Shown here in pieces: positions 794 through 17,283 of a DNA stretch of 19,233 nt; the first letter of the stretch is position 1; every line of letters begins with the position of its first letter. The stretch comes from Gemmatimonadota bacterium (GTDB lineage Bacteria > Gemmatimonadota > Gemmatimonadetes > Palauibacterales > Palauibacteraceae). The position numbers and the translations under genes were made by a program. The notes below the pieces were generated by a model that was not told the origin of the DNA, did no database searches, and was given only the letters and a program-made list of their open reading frames with translations. The stretch spans positions 1 to 19,233 of the forward strand of contig JBHIAV010000050.1 of NCBI GenBank assembly GCA_046758745.1. Direction: 5' to 3'.

Positions 794-1885
794 ATGAGAA
801 TCATCAAGCTCAGCACCGTACTGTTGGTGACCACGGCGTGGATGGTCTTCGCCGTGTCGCCCAAGACGAAGAGATCCGGAGGACCCCTCAGCCTCGACCA
901 TTCGTCTCTTCACGTGACCGAGCTGCAGGGTACCGTTCTGAGCGAGAGCGACCTGTTCGCTCTCCCCACCGCGATCGCCGTCGTCGAAGATCATCTGGTT
1001 CTCGTGGACCGGTTCGGCGAACACGTCGTGCACGTGCTCAGCAGAGCGACCGGCGAGATCATGGACTCCTTCGGCAGACATGGCGAGGGTCCGGGCGAGT
1101 TCAAGGTCGCGTACTCGATCGATCCCGTTCCCGGCGAGGAGCCGGTCTTCTGGATCTTCGACGCGGGATTGCAACGGCTCACCTGCGTCCGCCTGCATGA
1201 CGCCGACCGAAGGGAGCGACCGTGGGAGAGCCCGATCCTCGAGCTCCATGCTCGAGGCACCGTGACCAATCCGGTATGGGTGAGCGACGACGCGCTGATT
1301 TCCCTGGGCTTCTTCCTGGAGGGACGGCTCGCCAAGCTCGACGCGGCCGGCAACGTCACGGCGATGCTCGGGTCCCTTCCGGAGGCCGACCGCGAGGTTC
1401 CGCCGAACGTCCTGCTTCATGCGTATCAGGGCACGATGAAACCGAGTCCGGATCGCTCCCGTCTCGCCGTCGTCACGAGGCATGCCGGATTCGTTGAGAT
1501 CTACGGCGCGGGCGGAGAGCTCGTGAACCGGACGGGTGGTCCGTTCCCGTTCGAGCCGCGATTCGAGGTGAAGCCCGGCCCCGAAGGCCCGGTGATGGGG
1601 AGCGGCCGGGACCTCAGGTTCGGGTACCTGGACGTCGCGACTACGGGCGACCGCATCTACGCGCTGTTCTCCGGAAGGACGCGCGAAGGATTTCCGGGTC
1701 GGGCCAACTATGGCGAGTACGTCCACCTCTTCAACTGGTCGGGGGAATTCGAAGGCGCGCTCAGGCTCGACGCGGAAGCGATCGCGATCGCCGTCGATGC
1801 GGAAAAGCGAAGGCTGTACGCTGTGCGTCACCTTCCGCAGCCCGGAGTGCTCGCATACCGGCTTCCAGCGGCGGGCCGCCTGTGA
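794..1885 (+). CDS. Exported 6-bladed beta-propeller protein (TolB-like/BF3164-like, NHL-type blades)
   Basis: 363 aa with GAGGAG RBS and an N-terminal signal/anchor. Carries the FGRHGEGPGEF motif and repeated beta-blade patterns (YLDVATTGDRIYALFSGR, VHLFNWSGE, IAVDAEKRRLYAV). Confidence 0.8.
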   Translation: MRIIKLSTVLLVTTAWMVFAVSPKTKRSGGPLSLDHSSLHVTELQGTVLSESDLFALPTAIAVVEDHLVLVDRFGEHVVHVLSRATGEIMDSFGRHGEGPGEFKVAYSIDPVPGEEPVFWIFDAGLQRLTCVRLHDADRRERPWESPILELHARGTVTNPVWVSDDALISLGFFLEGRLAKLDAAGNVTAMLGSLPEADREVPPNVLLHAYQGTMKPSPDRSRLAVVTRHAGFVEIYGAGGELVNRTGGPFPFEPRFEVKPGPEGPVMGSGRDLRFGYLDVATTGDRIYALFSGRTREGFPGRANYGEYVHLFNWSGEFEGALRLDAEAIAIAVDAEKRRLYAVRHLPQPGVLAYRLPAAGRL

Positions 1886-2648: not shown

Positions 2649-2778
2649 TGGGGGGTGGAAGCACCGTCTCCGATGGGGAATCGAGTGGGTCCCTCCTCTT
2701 CTCGCCAGAGCCGGGCGTGCCTCTGCCGGGGTGGACGGTCCAACTTTAATTTACCGTCGACCTCGGAAGAACGGTGAC

Positions 2779-5700
2779 ATGTCCGACTCCAAGCCCGATA
2801 TGGAGTGGAAGCAAGGTATTTGTGGCATTTGCCCGGCAGGCTGCTGGGTGGAAGTAGGCCTCCGCGGCGGCAGGTTGGAGGACATCCGCGCCGACACAGG
2901 CCACCCCCTGGGGTTGATCTGCCGGCGGGGCCAGCACGCCCCCGAGATCGTCTACTCCGAGCGCCGGCTGCGGTATCCCATGAAGCGGGTGGGCCCACGG
3001 GGCACGCTGGAGTTCGAACGTGTTTCGTGGGATGAGGCGTATGACCTGATCGTGGCGAGCCTGAACCGCATCAAGGCGGAATCCGGTCCGGAGGCCGTCT
3101 CCATCTACACGGGTCGCGGGGCCTTCGAGCTCTCCCTGTGCGACATGTTCCAACCCAGGGGCGTGGCGGTCTCCTCGGCCTCCAACATTCTGTTTCCCTT
3201 CGGCTCGCCCAACACCATGGGGGTGGGGGCGTTGTGCTACGTCTCCTTCGCCATGATCGCCCCCCACGTCACCATGGGGCGGATGCTCATTGACATGTTC
3301 ACCGACATGGAGCATGCGGAGTTGCTGGTGGTGTGGGGTGCCAATCCGGCCACCGACTCGCCGCCACTGGACATGCACCGTCTGGAAGCGGCCGCCAGAC
3401 GCGGCGCCCGGGTGTCAGTCATCGATCCGCGCCGTACCGAGACCGTGATGCGGACCGGAGCCGAGTGGATCCCCATCCGCCCCGGCACCGACGCCGCCCT
3501 GGCCCTGGCCATGCTGCAGGTGATGATCGATGAAGAACTTTACGACGAGGACTTCGCCGAGAACTGGTGCCATGGCTTCGGTGAGCTGCGCACGTATGTC
3601 CAGCACTTTCGCCCGGAGGTGGTGGAGACCATCACCGGCGTGCCGGCCAAGATCATCCGCAGCCTGGCGCGGCGCATCGCCAAGGCCACCGGGGCTTGTC
3701 CGGTCATGTATACCGGCCTGGAGTATTCCGACAGCGGTGTTCAAGCCATCCGCGCCGTGCTGACGGTATTTGCGTTGGCCGGACAACTGGATGTCCCAGG
3801 CGGCATCGGACTGGCGGCGCGGGACGCGCACTTCCCCATCAACCGCGCCTGCAATCAGGAAAACCCCGATCCGGATCGGGCCGTGGCGCGCGACAGGTTT
3901 CCCATCTATAGCCGCTACCGCGGGGAGGGCCACGCCAGCGGGCTCGTGCACTCGGTGCTGGCAGGGGAGCCATATTCCATTCGGGCACTCATTATCCACG
4001 GCGCTTCCCTGCTGACCTCCTGGCCGCAGACCGCGCTGTGGCGGGCGACCCTCTCGAAGCTGGATTTCATCGCGTGTATCGACCGTCAGCTGACCGCGGA
4101 CGCCGCGTACGCCGATGTCGTGCTGCCCGCCACGACCATGTTCGAGATCCAGTCCTACATGGTCTACGGGCCCATTTTCCGCATCCGCGAAAAACTCATT
4201 GAGCCGGTGGGTGAGGCGCGCAACGACTACCTGATCATGGCCGAGCTGGCCGAGCGACTGGGGTATGGTCACCTGTATCCTCGCAGCGAAGAGGCCCTGC
4301 TGCGTTTCGTCCTGGACGGCTCGGGCTACACCGTGGAACGGGTGCGGGAGGCAGGCGGCTGGGTGAAGCTCCCCACTCCGTTGATGGAGTACGTGAAGTG
4401 GGAGAAGGGCCTTCTGCGCTCGGACGGGAAACCAGGCTTCGATACACCCACGGGCAAGTTCGAGATCTGGTCCACCATCCTGGAAGAGTACGGCTATGAG
4501 CCACTGCCCAAGTACACGGAGCCGAAGGAAGGCCCCCTCGGCAGCCCCGAGCTCGCTCGGCAGTATCCGCTGGTCTTCAATTCCGGCGCCCGCCCCAACA
4601 CCGATTTCCGCTCGCAACACCACGGCGTCGACGGCCTGCTGCGGGACAACCCGGAACCCACCATCGAGATGAACGCCGCCGATGCCGCCGAGCGCGGAGT
4701 CGAGACCGGCGATCGGGTGGAGGTGCGCTCACCGCGGGGCGCGGTGCCGTTCCGCGCCCGGGTCACCGAAGACATCGTCGAGGGCGCTGTGGAGATCAAC
4801 ATGGGCGGCGGCACGCCCGTGGGCCCCGAGGCCTGGCAGGAATGGAACGTCAACGAACTCACCAGTCTTGCAGCCTACGACGAGATCTCCGGCTTTCCGG
4901 TGTTCAAGGCCTTGCTGTGCGACGTGGTCAAGGTAGGCCAAGCGACCGAGCAGACCCGCGCCAGCGCGGCCGCGGCCGCAGGCGTATGCGCCCCGCCCAC
5001 ATCTCCCGTCCACGGTGACTCCCGCCGACCCGGTAGACGGATCTATCTGGACAACAATGCCACCAGCCGCCTTGCCGATACGGTGCGCGAGGCCATGCTG
5101 CCATTCCTGGAAACCGGCTACGGTAATCCCTCCAGCATCTACACCCAGGGGCGTCGCGCGCACGAGGCCATCGAGAACGCCCGCCGCCGAGTGGGCCGGC
5201 TCATCAATGCCCGTCCACGCCGCATCCTGTTCACCGGCGGCGGCTCGGAATCCAACAACCTGGCGCTGAAGGGCATCGCCTTCGCGCGCGGTGCCCAGGG
5301 CGATCACATCATCACCACCGCGATCGAACACCCCGCCATCCTCCAGACCTGCCGGTTCCTGGAGCGTATGGGCTTCCGTCTCACCTACCTGCCGGTGGAT
5401 AGCGACGGATTGGTAGACCCGGAGGCGCTGCACGGTGCCATCGATGACCACACCCTCGTGGTCTCCATCATGATGGCCAACAACGAGGTGGGCACCATCC
5501 AGCCGATAAAAGAGCTTCGCGACATCACACATGAGCGTGGCGTGTTGTTCCACACCGACGCAGTACAGGCAGTGGGCAAGATCCCGGTGGACGTGGAGGA
5601 GCTGGGGGCGGATCTGCTAAGCCTCTCGGGGCATAAGTTCCACGGTCCAAAGGGGGTGGGCGCGCTCTACGTTCGCAAGGGCGTGGAACTCGAGCCGTTG

Positions 5701-6192
5701 ATTCACGGCGGCAAGCAGGAACAAGGCCTGCGTGCGGGCACTGAGAACGTCGCGGCCATCGTGGGGCTCGGCAGGGCGGCCGAACTGGCCATTCAGGCTC
5801 TGCCGCTATCGCAGGAGACAGGGAGGCTGCGCGACCGTCTGGAGGCCGGCATTCGCGAGCTTATCCCGGACGCCCGGCTGAACGGCCACCGGATGCGGCG
5901 TCTATCCAACACGCTGAACCTGACGCTGCCCCGACTGCGCGGCGAGAGCCTGGTCGTAGCGCTGGATCAGCATGGCATCGCAGCGTCCTCGGGCTCGGCG
6001 TGCAAGTCGGGGTCACCCGACCCCACCCACGTGCTGATCGCCATGGGTCGCAGCACGGCGGACGCCCACTCCGCCGTGCGCTTCTCCCTCAGCCACGATA
6101 CCACGGCGGAGGAGATTGATCAGGTGCTCCATGCCTTGGAGGAGGTGTTGGAAGAGATGGAGACCACGGTACGCTTTCTACCGTGCAAGTAG
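2779..6192 (+). CDS. Fusion of a molybdopterin (Mo/W-bisPGD, DMSO reductase superfamily) oxidoreductase and a group I NifS/IscS-type cysteine desulfurase
   Basis: N-terminal domain has CGICPAGC...C (C15/18/22/48, 4Fe-4S), VWGANP, VIDPRRT, PIRPGTD, ADVVLPA and a MopB C-terminal domain (EMNAADAAERGVETGDRVEVRSPRG). After a linker come IYLDNNAT, HTDAVQAVGK, SGHKFHGPKG (PLP Lys) and SSGSAC. Start is ATG 2779 (ATG 2800 possible). Confidence 0.93.
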   Translation: MSDSKPDMEWKQGICGICPAGCWVEVGLRGGRLEDIRADTGHPLGLICRRGQHAPEIVYSERRLRYPMKRVGPRGTLEFERVSWDEAYDLIVASLNRIKAESGPEAVSIYTGRGAFELSLCDMFQPRGVAVSSASNILFPFGSPNTMGVGALCYVSFAMIAPHVTMGRMLIDMFTDMEHAELLVVWGANPATDSPPLDMHRLEAAARRGARVSVIDPRRTETVMRTGAEWIPIRPGTDAALALAMLQVMIDEELYDEDFAENWCHGFGELRTYVQHFRPEVVETITGVPAKIIRSLARRIAKATGACPVMYTGLEYSDSGVQAIRAVLTVFALAGQLDVPGGIGLAARDAHFPINRACNQENPDPDRAVARDRFPIYSRYRGEGHASGLVHSVLAGEPYSIRALIIHGASLLTSWPQTALWRATLSKLDFIACIDRQLTADAAYADVVLPATTMFEIQSYMVYGPIFRIREKLIEPVGEARNDYLIMAELAERLGYGHLYPRSEEALLRFVLDGSGYTVERVREAGGWVKLPTPLMEYVKWEKGLLRSDGKPGFDTPTGKFEIWSTILEEYGYEPLPKYTEPKEGPLGSPELARQYPLVFNSGARPNTDFRSQHHGVDGLLRDNPEPTIEMNAADAAERGVETGDRVEVRSPRGAVPFRARVTEDIVEGAVEINMGGGTPVGPEAWQEWNVNELTSLAAYDEISGFPVFKALLCDVVKVGQATEQTRASAAAAAGVCAPPTSPVHGDSRRPGRRIYLDNNATSRLADTVREAMLPFLETGYGNPSSIYTQGRRAHEAIENARRRVGRLINARPRRILFTGGGSESNNLALKGIAFARGAQGDHIITTAIEHPAILQTCRFLERMGFRLTYLPVDSDGLVDPEALHGAIDDHTLVVSIMMANNEVGTIQPIKELRDITHERGVLFHTDAVQAVGKIPVDVEELGADLLSLSGHKFHGPKGVGALYVRKGVELEPLIHGGKQEQGLRAGTENVAAIVGLGRAAELAIQALPLSQETGRLRDRLEAGIRELIPDARLNGHRMRRLSNTLNLTLPRLRGESLVVALDQHGIAASSGSACKSGSPDPTHVLIAMGRSTADAHSAVRFSLSHDTTAEEIDQVLHALEEVLEEMETTVRFLPCK

Positions 6193-6394
6193 CCGGACGA
6201 AGCGGCGGGCGGCGCCTGGAACCGTGATGGTGGCCGCCCTGGAGACGCCGCAAAGGTGGCGGCAGCCGGTCACGGGGCGGTCAGAGGCCCGTCAGCGAGA
6301 CGTGACGCGCGAACTTCGAGGCTATCCTATTCTCGGTGCCGAGGGGACCGTTGGCGGGGAATGCGCAATCCCTTAGATGTCGGGATCCCGAAAG

Positions 6395-6467
6395 AGCGGG
6401 CGACCGGTCTCGAACCGGCGACCTTCAGCTTGGGAAGCTGACGCTCTGCCTGCTGAGCTACGCCCGC
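6395..6467 (-). tRNA. tRNA-Gly (anticodon CCC)
   Basis: Acceptor GCGGGCG/CGCCCGC, discriminator U, anticodon arm TCAGC-TTCCCAA-GCTGA, T arm GCCGG-TTCGAGA-CCGGT. CCA is not encoded. Confidence 0.97.
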
Positions 6468-6592
6468 GCGTCACCGGCGCGTCCGAGCCGGTGTTTTCCA
6501 TCCGTCCAGTGCTGCAGCCGCGACACCGCCGGGGCGCCGCCTGCGAGCAGGGGTCTTTCCGCACTCCCCGCCCGACGGTGGTGCGTGCGGTA

Positions 6593-6666
6593 TGGGGCGG
6601 GAGGGACTCGAACCCCCGACCTCTGCGATGTGAGCGCAGCGCTCTGGCCGGCTGAGCTACCGCCCC
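6593..6666 (-). tRNA. tRNA-Val (anticodon CAC)
   Basis: Acceptor GGGGCGG/CCGCCCC, discriminator A, anticodon arm CTGCG-CTCACAT-CGCAG, T arm GGGGG-TTCGAGT-CCCTC. CCA is not encoded. Confidence 0.95.
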
Positions 6667-6773
6667 GGATCTTCGCGCCCGCGCCGGAGAAACGATCCGC
6701 CCCAGGCCACGCTGCTCCCGGCGGGCAAGGCACAAAACGGAGCCACGCCCGGGGGCCGGCTCCGCACGCCTCG

Positions 6774-6803
6774 ATTCTACCCTGCGCCGGGAGGGGGTGT
6801 CAA
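6774..6803 (-). promoter_or_regulatory. sigma70-type promoter for the tRNA-Val/tRNA-Gly pair
   Basis: TTGACA (6803-6798), 18-nt spacer, TAGAAT (6779-6774), about 100 nt upstream of tRNA-Val. Confidence 0.85.
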
Positions 6804-6831
6804 CCGAGCGCCGCCCGGGCGCCACGCCAGG

Positions 6832-7836
6832 CTAGTGCCTCCACGGGGTGAGCATCTTCCTCACGATCGCACCGTTGTCCGACAGGAACTCGCCCAAGGT
6901 CTTCTCCGTGTTGGCCCGGGTGCTGATGTAGCAGGCGGTGCACGTGTTCTGCTTGGTGAACTGCTCCAGCATGTCCTGCTGCTTCTCGAAATACGCCATC
7001 ACCATGGCGCAGGGTGTGAGACGACCGTCCGGATTGATGACGAGAAAGCGGCGCCCGGCCTGGCAACCGGAGATCCCGTCCTCGGTCATGAAGCGGTAGA
7101 ACTTCCACAGCACACGCGGCTGGGTGTAGACGGGATAGCCTTGCCGCCGGAGATCGATCACCTCCTCGATCTTCTCCTTGAGACCGGCGAGCGCCTCCTC
7201 GCCCTGAACGAGACCGCTCCGATCCTGCACTCGGAGGTGCGTGTACACCGAGAAGTTGACCGGCAGACCCCACTCCTTCGCCAGGCGGACGATGTCCGGC
7301 AGATCTCTGTAGTTCCAGTCCGTGATGCACACGTTGAGCAGCACGTCGTCCTTCTCGGTCGCCCGGGCCAGCTCGGGGAGCACCTCGGACATGCGGCCGA
7401 ACAGCCCCGGGATGCGCCGGAACTCGCTGTGGCGATCGTCGGGGAAGTCGAGGGAGACGGAGAGCTGATGCATCCCGGCCCTCTTCAGCCTGAAGAAGCG
7501 CTCCGAGGTGAGATTCGAGGCGTTGGTGACGACGATCATCCAGGGAAGTCCGCCCTTGTTCGTCATCTTCTCTACGATCTCGTAGACGTCGCCGCGCGCG
7601 AGCGGCTCCCCGCCGGAGACGTGCGACACGACGGGCCGGAGCTCCCGACAGATCTCGGCGTACTCGTCCGCCGTGAGGCGAGTCTCCTTGATCGGCCCTC
7701 CCCAGTTGCAGTGCCAGCAGTTCGCCGTGCAGGAATGGGTGATCTCGAACGAGACGGAGAGCGGCTTGTTCCGGAAGCGGTTGCGGATCCCGCGCGCAAG
7801 CATCTTGAGACCCATCGAGCCGGACACGTTCGGCAT
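6832..7836 (-). CDS. Radical SAM protein with C-terminal SPASM/Twitch-like Cys motif (334 aa)
   Basis: CTANCWHC (CxxxCxxC), SGGEP, VTNA, GCQAGRRFLVINPDGRLTPC and CTAC. AGGAGG RBS precedes ATG 7836. Confidence 0.92.
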   Translation of the reverse strand: MPNVSGSMGLKMLARGIRNRFRNKPLSVSFEITHSCTANCWHCNWGGPIKETRLTADEYAEICRELRPVVSHVSGGEPLARGDVYEIVEKMTNKGGLPWMIVVTNASNLTSERFFRLKRAGMHQLSVSLDFPDDRHSEFRRIPGLFGRMSEVLPELARATEKDDVLLNVCITDWNYRDLPDIVRLAKEWGLPVNFSVYTHLRVQDRSGLVQGEEALAGLKEKIEEVIDLRRQGYPVYTQPRVLWKFYRFMTEDGISGCQAGRRFLVINPDGRLTPCAMVMAYFEKQQDMLEQFTKQNTCTACYISTRANTEKTLGEFLSDNGAIVRKMLTPWRH

Positions 7837-7859
7837 GCGGACGCCCCTCCTCTCGCTCC

Positions 7860-8678
7860 TCAGCTCGTCCGGCGTTGCCCGGCTGCTTCGGCTCGCCGGG
7901 CGAGGAGGCGGCGAGCCACCTTCGGTCCTGCCTTGATGGCGTAAGCCAGTATGACGAGCCCGAAAAACCCGAAAAGCAGCCAGTTGGGGATCTCGAGCAC
8001 CGAGCCCGCCCACGCGAGCAGGAGGTAGCGCGGAAACCGCGCCGTGAGCAGGGCGGCCAGGTACTTCCACATCGGATAACGAATCGAGAAGCTCAGGAAC
8101 TTGAACGGGAAAAAGGGAACCGGCACGAAGCCGGTCGCCGTCAGGGTGAGGTACGGGTACCGCATGAACCAGCGCACCGCCGTCGCGTACCACGACTTCT
8201 CTTTGTAGCCCTGGAGGGACTTCAGGTTGAGAATCGGAACGAAGACCGTGTGGTCCATGAACCCGGCGACGAGCGTCCCGACGCTCGCCGCGGCGGCCGT
8301 CATCCACATGCTCCCGTACTTGCCGAAGTAGAGCACCACGGGCTCGTGCGGAAAGACGGAGATCGCGGCATTGGATGGGATCGCGTAGAAGGCCAGGTAC
8401 AGGTAGCTCTGCGAGCTGAAGTCGCGCAGCATAAGAACGAGCGTCACCGCGGCGGTGACGACCATGAGGGCGCCGAAGATCCATACCACGGGACTGAGGC
8501 GCTCCTCCGCCGGCGTGGCCGTTGCGAGCGCCACCCTCGAGGGCCCCGAGCGGCCAGGGATCGGGCTGGATGGCCGGACCGCCTCCGACCGCCCGGTGGC
8601 GGGGCTCTCGCCCTTCACGCCGATCTCCGCGCCGGCGGACTCCGTCCTCCGCTCCCGCGGTGCGCCCAGCTCATGCAT
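7860..8678 (-). CDS. VTT/DedA (SNARE-associated, YqaA-like) membrane protein
   Basis: Multiple hydrophobic helices, plus FPHEPVVLYFG, GFVPVPFFPFKF and ARFPRY motifs typical of the DedA/VTT superfamily. Start is uncertain (ATG 8678, or GTG 8618 with GGAG). Confidence 0.8.
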   Translation of the reverse strand: MHELGAPRERRTESAGAEIGVKGESPATGRSEAVRPSSPIPGRSGPSRVALATATPAEERLSPVVWIFGALMVVTAAVTLVLMLRDFSSQSYLYLAFYAIPSNAAISVFPHEPVVLYFGKYGSMWMTAAAASVGTLVAGFMDHTVFVPILNLKSLQGYKEKSWYATAVRWFMRYPYLTLTATGFVPVPFFPFKFLSFSIRYPMWKYLAALLTARFPRYLLLAWAGSVLEIPNWLLFGFFGLVILAYAIKAGPKVARRLLARRAEAAGQRRTS

Positions 8679-13907: not shown

Positions 13908-14747
13908 TCATCCGACGCGAGCCCGCACGGGCAGCGCTCTGCGCGCGAGCCACACCGCCACCAGCAGGAGGCCGAAGACGCACACCACGAGGGGACCGGT
14001 CGGCAGATCGAAGGTGAACGAGAGACCGAGCCCCGCCGCGGAGGCTACCGCCGAGACGGCCCAGCTGATCCCGATCAGACCTGCAGTCGAGCGAGTGAAG
14101 AGGAAGGCGACCACGGCGGGAACGACGAGGAAGGTGAACACGAGCAGCACGCCCGCAAGCGGCACGGCCAGCGTGATGACCACGCCGAACGACAAATAGA
14201 AGAGGAAATCCCACCACCGGATCTTCCAGCCGCCCTCCTCCGCCCTCTCTTCATGCAGCGAGATCGTGAGGAACCTATCCCGGAGCTTCCACTGGAAGAC
14301 GCCCACAACCGCGTACACCGCGGCGACCTTCGCGATCGTCCCCCAGTTCACCCACAGCAGGCTTCCCACCAGCACCTCGTGGATCGCCTCACCCCCGCCC
14401 GGCGTGCGGTCGGCCACCAGGATCGCCGCGGCCGTGGCCACGATGTACACGATCCCGATGATCGCCTCCTGCGGCACGCGCTGGCTCCCCCGGCGCTCAC
14501 GGGTGAAAGCGAAGACCAGCGCTCCGAGGGTCGTGAAGCCGAGGGCGAAGGCGTAGGCGAGGGGCGAGTCCCCGCCGACGTGGAAGAGGAGAGCGATCGT
14601 GCTCCCGAGCGCCGCCATCTGTGCCAGTGCCAGATCCACGAAGATCACGCCCCGCGCGATGACGTGTACACCCAGGTAGGCGAGCATCGCCACCAGCACC
14701 ATGGAGGCGACGAAGGGGGCGACCATCAGCTGCAACAGATCGGACAT
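13908..14747 (-). CDS. Metal ABC transporter permease (ZnuB/ABC-3-like)
   Basis: Highly hydrophobic, 279 aa. Motifs YLGVHVIARGVIFVDLALAQMAALG, EAIIGIVY, GVLLVFTFLVVPA and DLPTGP. GGAG RBS. Confidence 0.9.
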   Translation of the reverse strand: MSDLLQLMVAPFVASMVLVAMLAYLGVHVIARGVIFVDLALAQMAALGSTIALLFHVGGDSPLAYAFALGFTTLGALVFAFTRERRGSQRVPQEAIIGIVYIVATAAAILVADRTPGGGEAIHEVLVGSLLWVNWGTIAKVAAVYAVVGVFQWKLRDRFLTISLHEERAEEGGWKIRWWDFLFYLSFGVVITLAVPLAGVLLVFTFLVVPAVVAFLFTRSTAGLIGISWAVSAVASAAGLGLSFTFDLPTGPLVVCVFGLLLVAVWLARRALPVRARVG

Positions 14748-14860
14748 GTGTTCGACTCCGCTGACTCAGAGGTGGCCCGCCGTGCGGCGTTCGCGCTGTG
14801 CCACGCGGGCTGACGCGCTCGCCTCCCCTTCCCCGGTCGGGCGGAGCGTCGCGCCGGCCA

Positions 14861-15988
14861 TCAGCCGGTGGCGTAGGCGGCGGCGAGCTCCCGTATCCAC
14901 AGGCCCACCAGATCCGTGTAGGTCTTTGTTCCCGGCGCCCCATCCGTGTTGGAGGGAACGATCACCGGCGTAGCTCCCGTGCGCGCGGCCACGGACTGTA
15001 CCTGATTGTGGTCGTAGTAGTTGGTGGAGAAGAGTACCCGGATCCCCTCATCCTGCATGAGCCGGATGACCCGCGCTACATGTTGGGGCGTCGGCGGGAT
15101 GCCCGGTTTCGGCTCTACGTACTCGACGCACGACACGTCGAAAGCCCGGTTCAGGTAGTCCCATTCCTTGTGGTAGCACACCATCCGCTCACCGCGGAAC
15201 GCCTCCGCCTGCTTCAGCCACCCACCCAGCCGTTGGGACAGCGGCCGCCCTTGATAACTCTGGGTGGAGACGAACTCGAGCAGACGGTACTCTCTCGCGA
15301 GGTTGAATACCGCATCCACCCCGAGCAGCTCCACCAGCTCGTCCCCCGCGAAGGCCCGCATGATCCGCTCCTTCCAGGCGGCGAAGCGTCGCTCGAAGTA
15401 AGAGGCGTTTTCAGGCGAGACGCGCTTCAGGCCGGCCAGGATGTTCTGCCCTATCTGAACCGCGTTGGCGGGGGCGGTCCAGATGTGGGGGTTTCCGAAC
15501 AGGTGAATGTCGCCCTGGGACCGGCTGACGGACTCCGGGATATCGAGAAGCTTGATGCCTCTGTAGGCGGTCACATGACCCGGATTCCCCGGCCGGATCT
15601 TCTGGTTGTTCGCCTTGTCGAGGAGCGTCGGGACCCACAGCTCCAGGTCCAGGCCCGTCACCACGAACAGGTCGGCGCGCCGGAGCTTGAGCAGCAGGCT
15701 CGGGCGCGGAGTCACGAAATGCGGGTTCTCCGCGCCGTCGGCGATGGCAGAGACCTCGGCGCGGTCGCCAGCGATCTCACGCGCGATCGCGGCGTACGTG
15801 GTGAGGGAAGTCACGACGCGTACGGCGGCTTGCCCGTCCCCTTCGGAGGGGGCCGCGGCGGCCGACACGCTGCTCGCGGTCGCCGAGGCGACCGAAGTCT
15901 CCGACTCTGCAGGGGGGACGGCCCCCGCGAAGGCCGGCGCGACGGCTCCGGAGAAGGCGGTGAGGAGGACGGCGATATCGCGAAACAT
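14861..15988 (-). CDS. Metal ABC transporter substrate-binding protein (ZnuA/TroA family)
   Basis: Signal peptide from ATG 15988. Motifs VVTSLT, ENPHFV, GLDLELW, GDIHLFGNPHIW, YHKEWDY and EPKPGIPPTPQH. Confidence 0.92.
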   Translation of the reverse strand: MFRDIAVLLTAFSGAVAPAFAGAVPPAESETSVASATASSVSAAAAPSEGDGQAAVRVVTSLTTYAAIAREIAGDRAEVSAIADGAENPHFVTPRPSLLLKLRRADLFVVTGLDLELWVPTLLDKANNQKIRPGNPGHVTAYRGIKLLDIPESVSRSQGDIHLFGNPHIWTAPANAVQIGQNILAGLKRVSPENASYFERRFAAWKERIMRAFAGDELVELLGVDAVFNLAREYRLLEFVSTQSYQGRPLSQRLGGWLKQAEAFRGERMVCYHKEWDYLNRAFDVSCVEYVEPKPGIPPTPQHVARVIRLMQDEGIRVLFSTNYYDHNQVQSVAARTGATPVIVPSNTDGAPGTKTYTDLVGLWIRELAAAYATG

Positions 15989-16005
15989 ATCAGATAGCTC
16001 TCTGT

Positions 16006-17283
16006 CTAATAGCTCTCGTGTTTGTGAGGACCGACGGCCCAAACGGCCTGGATCAGCCAGCGGTCCGACGTATCCCTCTCCCCGACGAGGTCCGGGGTCG
16101 AGCTGTGCTGCCACTCGGCGCGGAGCATCACCCACTCGCTCTGCCACCAGGTTATGCGGGGTACGATCGCCCACTCGTGCCGCCCGGAGGGTCCCTCCAA
16201 CAGCTCCACGTAATCGAAGCGTGCACCGGCGAACCAGCTCCGGCCGAGCTGATATTCCGCGCCGAGGTACGCCCCATACCGGGTGCCACCGATTCCGCCG
16301 CGCTCCTGGTGCACGGCGTATGCCTCGCCCCGCAGGGTGAACGAGCGGTACAGCCCTCGCCCCGGAGGCCGCCAGGTGTAACGCAGGTCTGCGCCGAACA
16401 GCCTCGCCTTCAGCTCCTCATCGGGGTTCTCCCCGTACGCCACGGTGCCGCCGACCTGGAAGAAGGAGGAGCGGCCGAGCTGCCAGAAGTTGTTGAGGTG
16501 ACCGAGCACGGAGAGCCGGTCCCCCTTCTGGAACAGCTCCTCGCTCTCGCCGACGGTGAGCTCCCCCCACAGCTCGTGAGTGGCGCCGCCAGGGCCGTCG
16601 AACGGGGCTAGCCAGTACACGCGCAGGCCGTTCCCGACAAGGCCCTCCTCCCCGAAATAGGTACGATACACGAGTGGGTACTCGCTCTCGGGAAGGGCGT
16701 GCAGGTGCACCCGGTTCAGATCCCCGACCTGCTGGCGGAGGCGCCCGAGGTCGACCCGGAAGCCGCCGGGCAGGCCGCTCCAGTAGGCGTAACCCTCCTC
16801 CAGGTCCAGCTCGCCTTCCTCGAACGAGAGGAAGATCTTCGTGCTGGCGTACGGGTCGAGCGCCGCCTGGAAAGCGAACTCGAACTCCCGGAGGTCGACG
16901 TTGTCGGCTTGCGGGCCCGGTCGAACGGCCGCCAGCCGAACGTCGCCCGTGATGCTGATCTCGGGGTTGAGCCGGTTCAGGCTGCCCACCGGCGGCCCGC
17001 CCTGCGTCCCCTCCGCCGCCGTCGTGTCAGCCTGCTCTCCAGCCGCGGCCGCCGCAGCGCGCAGCGCCGCCAGCTCATCCACGACCTCGAGCGTGTCGGC
17101 CCGTGCGGTACGCAGCGAGTCGACGAGCCATGCCAGCGAGTCGAGCCGCGCGTTGAGAGCGTGGACTTCGGCGATCAGCGAGTCGGTGGTGGACGTGGGG
17201 CGCTCCTGGGCCCGGACGGTGGCCGGTCCGGCCAGACCGGCCGCCACCCCTGCGACTGCACACCAAGTTGTCGACGTTCGCAA
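16006..17283 (-). CDS. Outer-membrane beta-barrel (porin-like) protein linked to metal uptake
   Basis: TTG start with AGGAGG 8 nt upstream. Signal peptide, coiled-coil segment, then NPEISITGD, REFEFAFQAALDPY, LNRVHLH and alternating beta-strands. His-containing C-terminus GPHKHESY. Confidence 0.8.
   Translation of the reverse strand: MRTSTTWCAVAGVAAGLAGPATVRAQERPTSTTDSLIAEVHALNARLDSLAWLVDSLRTARADTLEVVDELAALRAAAAAAGEQADTTAAEGTQGGPPVGSLNRLNPEISITGDVRLAAVRPGPQADNVDLREFEFAFQAALDPYASTKIFLSFEEGELDLEEGYAYWSGLPGGFRVDLGRLRQQVGDLNRVHLHALPESEYPLVYRTYFGEEGLVGNGLRVYWLAPFDGPGGATHELWGELTVGESEELFQKGDRLSVLGHLNNFWQLGRSSFFQVGGTVAYGENPDEELKARLFGADLRYTWRPPGRGLYRSFTLRGEAYAVHQERGGIGGTRYGAYLGAEYQLGRSWFAGARFDYVELLEGPSGRHEWAIVPRITWWQSEWVMLRAEWQHSSTPDLVGERDTSDRWLIQAVWAVGPHKHESY

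Follow-up and report, generated by a model that had tools for sequence, protein, structure and literature searches.

A molybdopterin enzyme–cysteine desulfurase fusion in a Gemmatimonadota genome is probably an orthologue of metallopterin-dependent ergothioneine synthase

Introduction

Which reaction is carried out by a protein that joins a molybdopterin enzyme and a cysteine desulfurase in one polypeptide? The question is raised by positions 1-19,233 of contig JBHIAV010000050.1 (GCA_046758745.1; contig C50 of genome G000), the 19,233-nucleotide stretch of Gemmatimonadota DNA that was analysed here and is referred to as the window, in which an open reading frame (ORF) at 2779-6192 on the plus strand encodes both modules. 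We consider, with a probability of about 0.9, that this gene is an orthologue of metallopterin-dependent ergothioneine synthase (MES), a known family described in 2022 by Beliaeva & Seebeck whose members make the antioxidant ergothioneine without oxygen, and it is compared below mainly with the enzyme of Caldithrix abyssi (CaMES, 1136 aa) (PMC9516567). The assignment, made at the level of sequence, is built on the domain architecture, the presence of all the essential residues, orthology with homologues linked to the histidine-specific methyltransferase EgtD, and an EgtD gene in the same genome, all of which are established here. Neither the enzyme type nor the mechanism is new.

Results and discussion

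Gene, reading frame and domain architecture

The frame is open from GTG 2731 to the TAG stop codon at 6190-6192 (2731..6192, plus strand), and a Shine-Dalgarno-like GGAAG lies ~10 nt 5' of ATG 2779. Since the database copy of the protein (P0002, 1130 aa) begins at Met8, the start codon is placed at 2779 or 2800. The features of the gene are listed below.

2779..6192, plus strand: putative MES gene, 1137 aa plus TAG stop (ORF scan, Pfam, NCBIfam)
2800..2958, plus strand: Molybdop_Fe4S4 domain PF04879, residues 8-60 (Pfam E 2.6e-6)
2821-2823, 2830-2832, 2842-2844 and 2920-2922, plus strand: Fe4S4 cluster cysteines C15, C18, C22 and C48
2965..4257, plus strand: Molybdopterin domain PF00384 (MopB catalytic), residues 63-493 (Pfam E 1.7e-44)
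3235-3237, plus strand: C153 in GALCY, predicted Mo/W ligand, inside the Molybdopterin domain
4591..4911, plus strand: Molydop_binding domain PF01568, residues 605-711 (Pfam E 3.4e-21)
4927..5034, plus strand: Ala/Pro-rich variable linker without Met, ~residues 717-752
5041..6126, plus strand: Aminotran_5 domain PF00266 (NifS/IscS-type desulfurase), residues 755-1116 (Pfam E 2.4e-86)
5635-5637, plus strand: K953, pyridoxal 5'-phosphate (PLP) lysine
6001-6003, plus strand: C1075, persulfide cysteine
6070..6072, plus strand: S1098 (TCC), at the position of CaMES Cys1097
6184..6186, plus strand: C1136, penultimate residue and C-terminal sulfur-relay cysteine, the protein ending in ...LPCK

The structural part of the original prediction is borne out by these features. 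It had described a complete MopB-family module and a complete NifS/IscS module in one stop-free frame, on which the ORF scan, Pfam and NCBIfam agree; a 4Fe-4S motif, present as the Molybdop_Fe4S4 domain with its four cysteines; an Ala/Pro linker free of Met, which matches ~residues 717-752; and C153, K953 and C1075, each located exactly where it had been placed. The protein had also been said to lack a twin-arginine translocation signal, and no twin-arginine motif is seen when the N-terminus, MSDSKPDMEWKQGICGIC, is read directly. Its statement that no electron-transfer or membrane subunit is adjacent holds as well, no ferredoxin-like or other electron-transfer subunit and no membrane anchor being encoded among the neighbours of the gene in the window.

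The C-terminal part of the protein scored best with the NCBIfam model NifS TIGR03402 (515 bits, below the cut-off of 530.75) and gave 386 bits against a cut-off of 643 with the IscS model. A housekeeping NifS/IscS, which is a stand-alone protein of ~400 aa, was rejected on these scores below the equivalog cut-offs and on the fusion of the domain to a 750-aa MopB module. The identity of a named MopB enzyme, such as acetylene hydratase, FdhF, PhsA, DmsA or NasC, was likewise discarded, as every score lies below the curated NCBIfam cut-off, and far below it in the cases of Fdh-alpha (268 against 666 bits), PhsA (259 against 694) and DmsA (245 against 778). A search of the Protein Data Bank (PDB) placed acetylene hydratase 2e7z as the nearest MopB chain (238 bits) and NifS/IscS chains at ~350 bits, a ranking which is the same as the relationships stated for CaMES (PMC9516567), and full-length MES was absent from the PDB copy searched. 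AlphaFold2 modelling of the full protein from a 24-row alignment (A1, 73-81% identity) reached a mean predicted local distance difference test score of 51.9 and a predicted template modelling score of 0.39; the alignment is too shallow and the model too poor for distances between cysteines and the metal site.

Correspondence with CaMES and proposed mechanism

The window protein resembles CaMES in the order of its parts, with a three-part MopB module first, then a linker and finally a NifS-type desulfurase, in length (1137 versus 1136 aa) and in that its genome also encodes EgtD. The functional positions are collinear: C15/18/22/48 correspond to 14/17/21/48 in CaMES, C153 to 153, K953 to 952, C1075 to 1074 and C1136 to 1135. 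Mutagenesis of CaMES gave 2000-fold less product for K952A, C1074S and C1135S and almost no ergothioneine for C153S (PMC9516567). Co-expression of K952A and C153S failed to rescue the activity, from which it follows that sulfur transfer in CaMES is intramolecular, and the K952A variant still swaps 34S between ergothioneine and trimethylhistidine, from which it follows that the metal centre is the site of sulfur transfer and that the desulfurase serves turnover, not activation (PMC9516567). An obligatory intramolecular persulfide relay, shown or proposed, re-sulfurises the metal centre of CaMES in every turnover, and four homologues yielded ergothioneine from trimethylhistidine in E. coli, the tested homologues including AbMES, EaMES and hvMES (PMC9516567). 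A Δmtn derivative of E. coli K-12 served as the host in that work, BL21 giving ~17-fold less (22 versus 370 µM) (PMC9516567).

We infer the same activity for the window protein, drawing on CaMES for the reaction, for the residues of the relay and for sulfur transfer within one polypeptide. By this analogy, the PLP domain (K953) would draw sulfur from L-cysteine to form a persulfide on C1075, and the sulfur would then move within the same polypeptide from C1075 through C1136 to a Mo/W-bis(molybdopterin guanine dinucleotide) centre, which is probably held by C153 and accompanied by the N-terminal 4Fe-4S cluster. The metal-sulfido species so formed would place the sulfur onto the imidazole C2 of trimethylhistidine (hercynine) to provide ergothioneine without O2, the trimethylhistidine being supplied, on this proposal, by the single EgtD of the genome on another contig.

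In its interpretation the original prediction is partly supported. It had suggested that the enzyme sulfurates its own cofactor or uses a Cys-derived persulfide as co-substrate; the delivery of Cys-derived sulfur to its own Mo/W centre and the insertion of that sulfur into a substrate agree with CaMES, while persulfide reduction found no support, and the remark that no characterised example is known is overtaken by the 2022 description of the MES family (PMC9516567). The trimethylhistidine substrate, the ergothioneine product and the essential C-terminal relay cysteine (C1136 here) had been missed.

Distribution and conservation of the fusion

A protein-database search with the NifS part as query, covering proteins of 625-1990 aa, gave 3950 matches at E <= 1e-3 among 8000 scored. 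The 120 best proteins share 67-100% identity in the NifS part, mostly ~70%; PF00384 and PF00266 occur together in 115, and the remaining five, which are N-terminally truncated, keep PF01568 and PF00266. In the source records these proteins are called nothing more specific than "IscS subfamily cysteine desulfurase", "cysteine desulfurase NifS" or "aminotransferase class V". This amounts to an annotation gap, in which hundreds of metagenome-assembled genomes (MAGs) lack the name ergothioneine synthase and the window gene appears as a mis-annotated member of a known family.

Relatives are encoded in 517 of 595 candidate stretches of genome_contigs, of which the best 80 were taken as the loci for all 80-locus counts given here. 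Each of the 80 gave a single tblastn segment over both modules with 68-80% identity, and the last residue was reached in 78, the other two (L032 and L075) being stopped by contig ends. The original prediction had proposed an architecture search and had named a lost stop codon between two genes as the possibility that would undo it: the MopB-NifS fusion recurs widely (115/120 best proteins, 80/80 loci), and, because all 80 loci share it in a single frame, we regard it as real, neither a lost stop nor an assembly chimera. The host MAG labels of the 80 loci include Gemmatimonadota, Aminicenantes, Chloroflexota, Calditrichota, Acidobacteriota, Planctomycetota, Latescibacterota and Pseudomonadota, with Calditrichia and Caldithrix sp. 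MAGs (~72% identity) as the nearest named relatives. A search of 23 further genomes of the family of the window genome found no MES; this absence and the lack of shared neighbours point to a patchy, probably horizontal, distribution.

In an alignment of 81 rows, the window protein and the 80 loci, the cluster cysteines C15/C18/C22/C48 are kept in 80-81 rows, C153 and K953 in all 81 and C1075 in 80, while C1136 is present in 79 and the other two rows have gaps there. Position 1098 is Cys in 78 of the 81 rows and Ser in two, the window protein and L057. From row to row the linker differs in both sequence and length, and it keeps its position. A FastTree phylogeny of the 81 proteins places the window protein as sister to that of a Gemmatimonadota MAG (L002, support 95) and within a supported 14-row set that includes three EgtD-adjacent members. 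Adjacency to EgtD requires 9-10 changes over this tree and the internal branches are very short; as adjacency is so scattered, MES is one orthologous family with no separate paralogue clade.

Two loci, L052:328-4800 and L061:2311-6783, have 1491-aa frames that resembled an EgtD::MES triple fusion, which was rejected since no Pfam methyltransferase is found there; EgtD is encoded just upstream in a different frame, and the 1491-aa frames are GC-rich read-through.

Association with EgtD

The substrate of MES, trimethylhistidine, is made by EgtD, and EgtD was reported to adjoin MES in 55 of about 80 genomes (PMC9516567). Using the EgtD of the window genome itself as tblastn query, EgtD was detected in the 6-kb flanks of 28 of the 80 loci. 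Unsupervised clustering of 1708 flank ORFs recovered the EgtD family in 24 loci, the next families reaching at most seven; EgtD is the only recurrent neighbour of MES among the 80 loci. Fifty of the 52 genomes without a flanking EgtD were searched (L075 and L079 were left out), and in 48 of them an EgtD scoring over the Pfam cut-off lies at another place in the genome. Six loci of a Calditrichia/Caldithrix MAG clade have no flanking EgtD; because this clade holds Caldithrix, and the C. abyssi enzyme is active, non-adjacency is not evidence against MES function.

As a control, 301 genomes of the phylum of the window were sampled, 15 of which hold a full-length or contig-truncated MES (G000, G346, G331, G113, G162, G199, G282, G177, G226, G159, G120, G110, G099, G166 and G068). 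EgtD is present in 15/15 of these versus 110/286 without MES, a contrast for which no p-value is given because related genomes are not independent; the background tallies take in three genomes flagged unpublished (G107, G147 and G207), none of which is among the 15. A flanking EgtD is absent from all 15 loci of genome_contigs that carry a Gemmatimonadota label. EgtD was observed directly beside MES in two members of the phylum sample, at G166:C21:43882-48045 and G068:C395:2-2504.

The window genome (3.08 Mb, 130 contigs, 68% GC, 87% complete) has a single EgtD on contig C13 (PF10017 352 bits; TIGR03438 358 bits, cut-off 291), which belongs to the following cluster.

Contig C13, L082:5961-10313, minus strand: EgtB-EgtD-EgtA-like (GCS2) cluster, O2-dependent ergothioneine route (NCBIfam/Pfam)

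EgtB is a 656-aa ORF with DinB_2 and FGE-sulfatase domains (TIGR03440 365 bits, cut-off 360; SenA 309, under its cut-off), and the EgtA-like glutamate-cysteine ligase gives 197 bits with TIGR03444, under the cut-off. The genome yielded no EgtC (19 bits).

Points against the assignment and alternative explanations

Several observations weigh against reading the window gene as MES. EgtD is absent from the window and from the whole of contig C50, and, as it sits on C13 beside EgtB, linkage lends the assignment no direct support here; since an O2-dependent EgtB is encoded in the genome anyway, MES is also not required to explain EgtD. The two contigs fit the composition of the bin (tetranucleotide r 0.996 and 0.993), but consistent binning is not proof that MES and EgtD, on separate contigs of a MAG, belong to one organism. 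Among cofactor genes, the genome has two MoaA matches over the cut-off, a MobA-like NTP_transf_3 and other MopB enzymes, whereas MoeA_N (PF03453) was not found in this 87%-complete assembly, which may reflect an assembly gap. At the 80 loci, none of the 12 neighbouring ORFs of the window recurs next to MES except as single matches in L008 and L042. The comparison with CaMES was made through published residue numbers and description, and one residue differs, Ser1098 replacing Cys1097. The latter was called strictly conserved, although the C1097S exchange costs CaMES only a 2-fold loss (PMC9516567), on which ground Cys1097 is not taken as defining MES.

The alternative that survives best, though improbable, is an MES-like paralogue which, in lineages without its linkage to EgtD, would perform the same chemistry on some other heterocycle or small molecule. 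It would accommodate the missing linkage here and in the 15 Gemmatimonadota-labelled loci, EgtB could account for the EgtD of the window genome, and sulfurisation of heterocycles by other Mo enzymes was speculated upon by the authors of the MES study (PMC9516567). However, full-length identity to EgtD-adjacent members is 68-80% and the unlinked members form no clade of their own; the Calditrichia/Caldithrix clade lacks flanking EgtD, although MES activity is established for the Caldithrix abyssi enzyme; and among the 50 unlinked genomes 48 have EgtD, while only 12 have an EgtB over the cut-off.

Less probable still is a one-time self-maturation of the cofactor for an unrelated redox reaction, or a persulfide reduction by the MopB module in the manner of polysulfide or thiosulfate reductases. 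The partial PhsA (259 bits) and Fdh-alpha (268 bits) matches, far under their cut-offs, would be in keeping with such a role, and desulfurases are well known to sulfurate Mo cofactors (PMC9516567). Against this stand the isotope exchange of CaMES K952A, which assigns sulfur transfer to the metal centre and turnover to the desulfurase, the lack of an electron-transfer partner gene nearby, and the tight co-occurrence with EgtD, which would be left unexplained. An artefactual fusion of two genes by a lost stop codon, frameshift or assembly chimera, for which no supporting point was found, has a negligible probability and is refuted by the same one-segment fusion in 80/80 loci of many phyla, with the relay cysteine and the linker position conserved.

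Two apparent ergothioneine routes in one genome

MES genomes were discovered as EgtD genomes lacking EgtB or EanB, and the hosts were described as strict anaerobes, "exclusively anaerobic" (PMC9516567); a passage of a review (PMC10903977) repeats this anaerobe framing. The window genome, in contrast, has an unlinked EgtD in an EgtB-EgtD-EgtA-like cluster and four COX1 (heme-copper oxidase) matches, so that two routes to ergothioneine, one dependent on O2 and one independent of it, seem to coexist in this Gemmatimonadota-like MAG. EgtB over the curated cut-off occurs in 13 of 51 MES genomes including that of the window, adjoining EgtD in 10 of the other 12, and heme-copper oxidase subunit I (E <= 1e-30) in 45 of 50, a selected sample consisting of the genomes without EgtD beside MES. 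The COX1 family also takes in NO reductases, many anaerobes retain oxidases for detoxification, and MAGs can be chimeric.

We give roughly even odds to the proposal that MES is not limited to strict anaerobes and that here, beside a complete-looking EgtB/EgtD cluster and aerobic oxidases, one EgtD serves both routes. A literature search, which did not extend to the supplementary list of genomes in the 2022 study, found no report of MES alongside EgtB or oxidases and brought up only that study, reviews and unrelated papers citing it. If the proposal is true, ergothioneine production could continue across oxic/anoxic shifts. The putative dual-route genome softens the published view of MES as a marker of strict anaerobes and suggests that the compound is wanted under both oxygen regimes. 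This is a modest extension of the "exclusively anaerobic" statement on MES (PMC9516567).

Neighbouring genes in the window

The genes closest to MES are listed below.

794-1885, plus strand: TolB-like propeller, neighbour of MES
6394-6467, minus strand: tRNA-Gly(CCC), downstream of MES and convergent
6593-6666, minus strand: tRNA-Val(CAC), downstream of MES and convergent
6832-8484, minus strand: radical S-adenosylmethionine (SAM) protein, 550-aa ORF

The other neighbours are a SpoU methylase, a glucan phosphorylase, Rho, a Zn/Mn ABC transporter and a Zn-dependent alcohol dehydrogenase. In the stretch that separates the TolB-like gene from the start of MES (1886-2778, ~890 nt), the ORFs tested had no Pfam match and there was no Rfam match; over the whole window, Rfam gave the two tRNAs only, with no molybdenum cofactor riboswitch or other cis element before MES. 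A strong sigma-70-like site (TTGACA, 18 nt, TAGAAT; 11/12) lies upstream of tRNA-Val at 6803-6774 on the minus strand, and the ORFs listed over the tRNA stretch (6336-6851 and others) are probably spurious.

The radical SAM ORF has its core at residues 247-401 only, with weak generic SPASM, AhbD and MoaA-like matches. It was rejected as a maturase of the molybdenum or tungsten cofactor, its scores with MoaA (56-62 bits) and the W-cofactor radical SAM maturase (35 bits) being far under the cut-offs. Third-position GC indicates that a separate gene in another frame (7860-8678, minus strand) may occupy its apparent N-terminal part. At 13908-17283 on the minus strand lie a metal ABC transporter permease (ABC-3), a ZnuA-like binding protein and a 425-aa ORF (16006-17283, minus strand), the last with neither a Pfam nor an NCBIfam match; all three are matched on locus L042 with 35-41% identity.

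Comparison with known systems

Beyond CaMES, the window protein shares with tungsten acetylene hydratase (2e7z) a cytoplasmic location with no twin-arginine signal and, by prediction, an N-terminal 4Fe-4S cluster and a Cys metal ligand, and acetylene hydratase is ~27% identical to CaMES (PMC9516567). It differs in that acetylene hydratase has no desulfurase domain, hydrates acetylene and forms no C-S bond. The eukaryotic molybdenum cofactor sulfurases ABA3 and MOCOS, and bacterial IscS acting with FdhD or XdhC, are alike in that a NifS-like desulfurase gives a Mo cofactor its sulfido ligand. Unlike MES, which re-sulfurates its own bound cofactor in each turnover, these systems sulfurate once, before insertion of the cofactor into a separate enzyme. 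Finally, the rhodanese-type EanB and the non-haem-iron sulfoxide synthase EgtB start from the same EgtD-made substrate and arrive at the same end product as MES, but by unrelated folds and chemistry, and in the case of EgtB with a need for O2.

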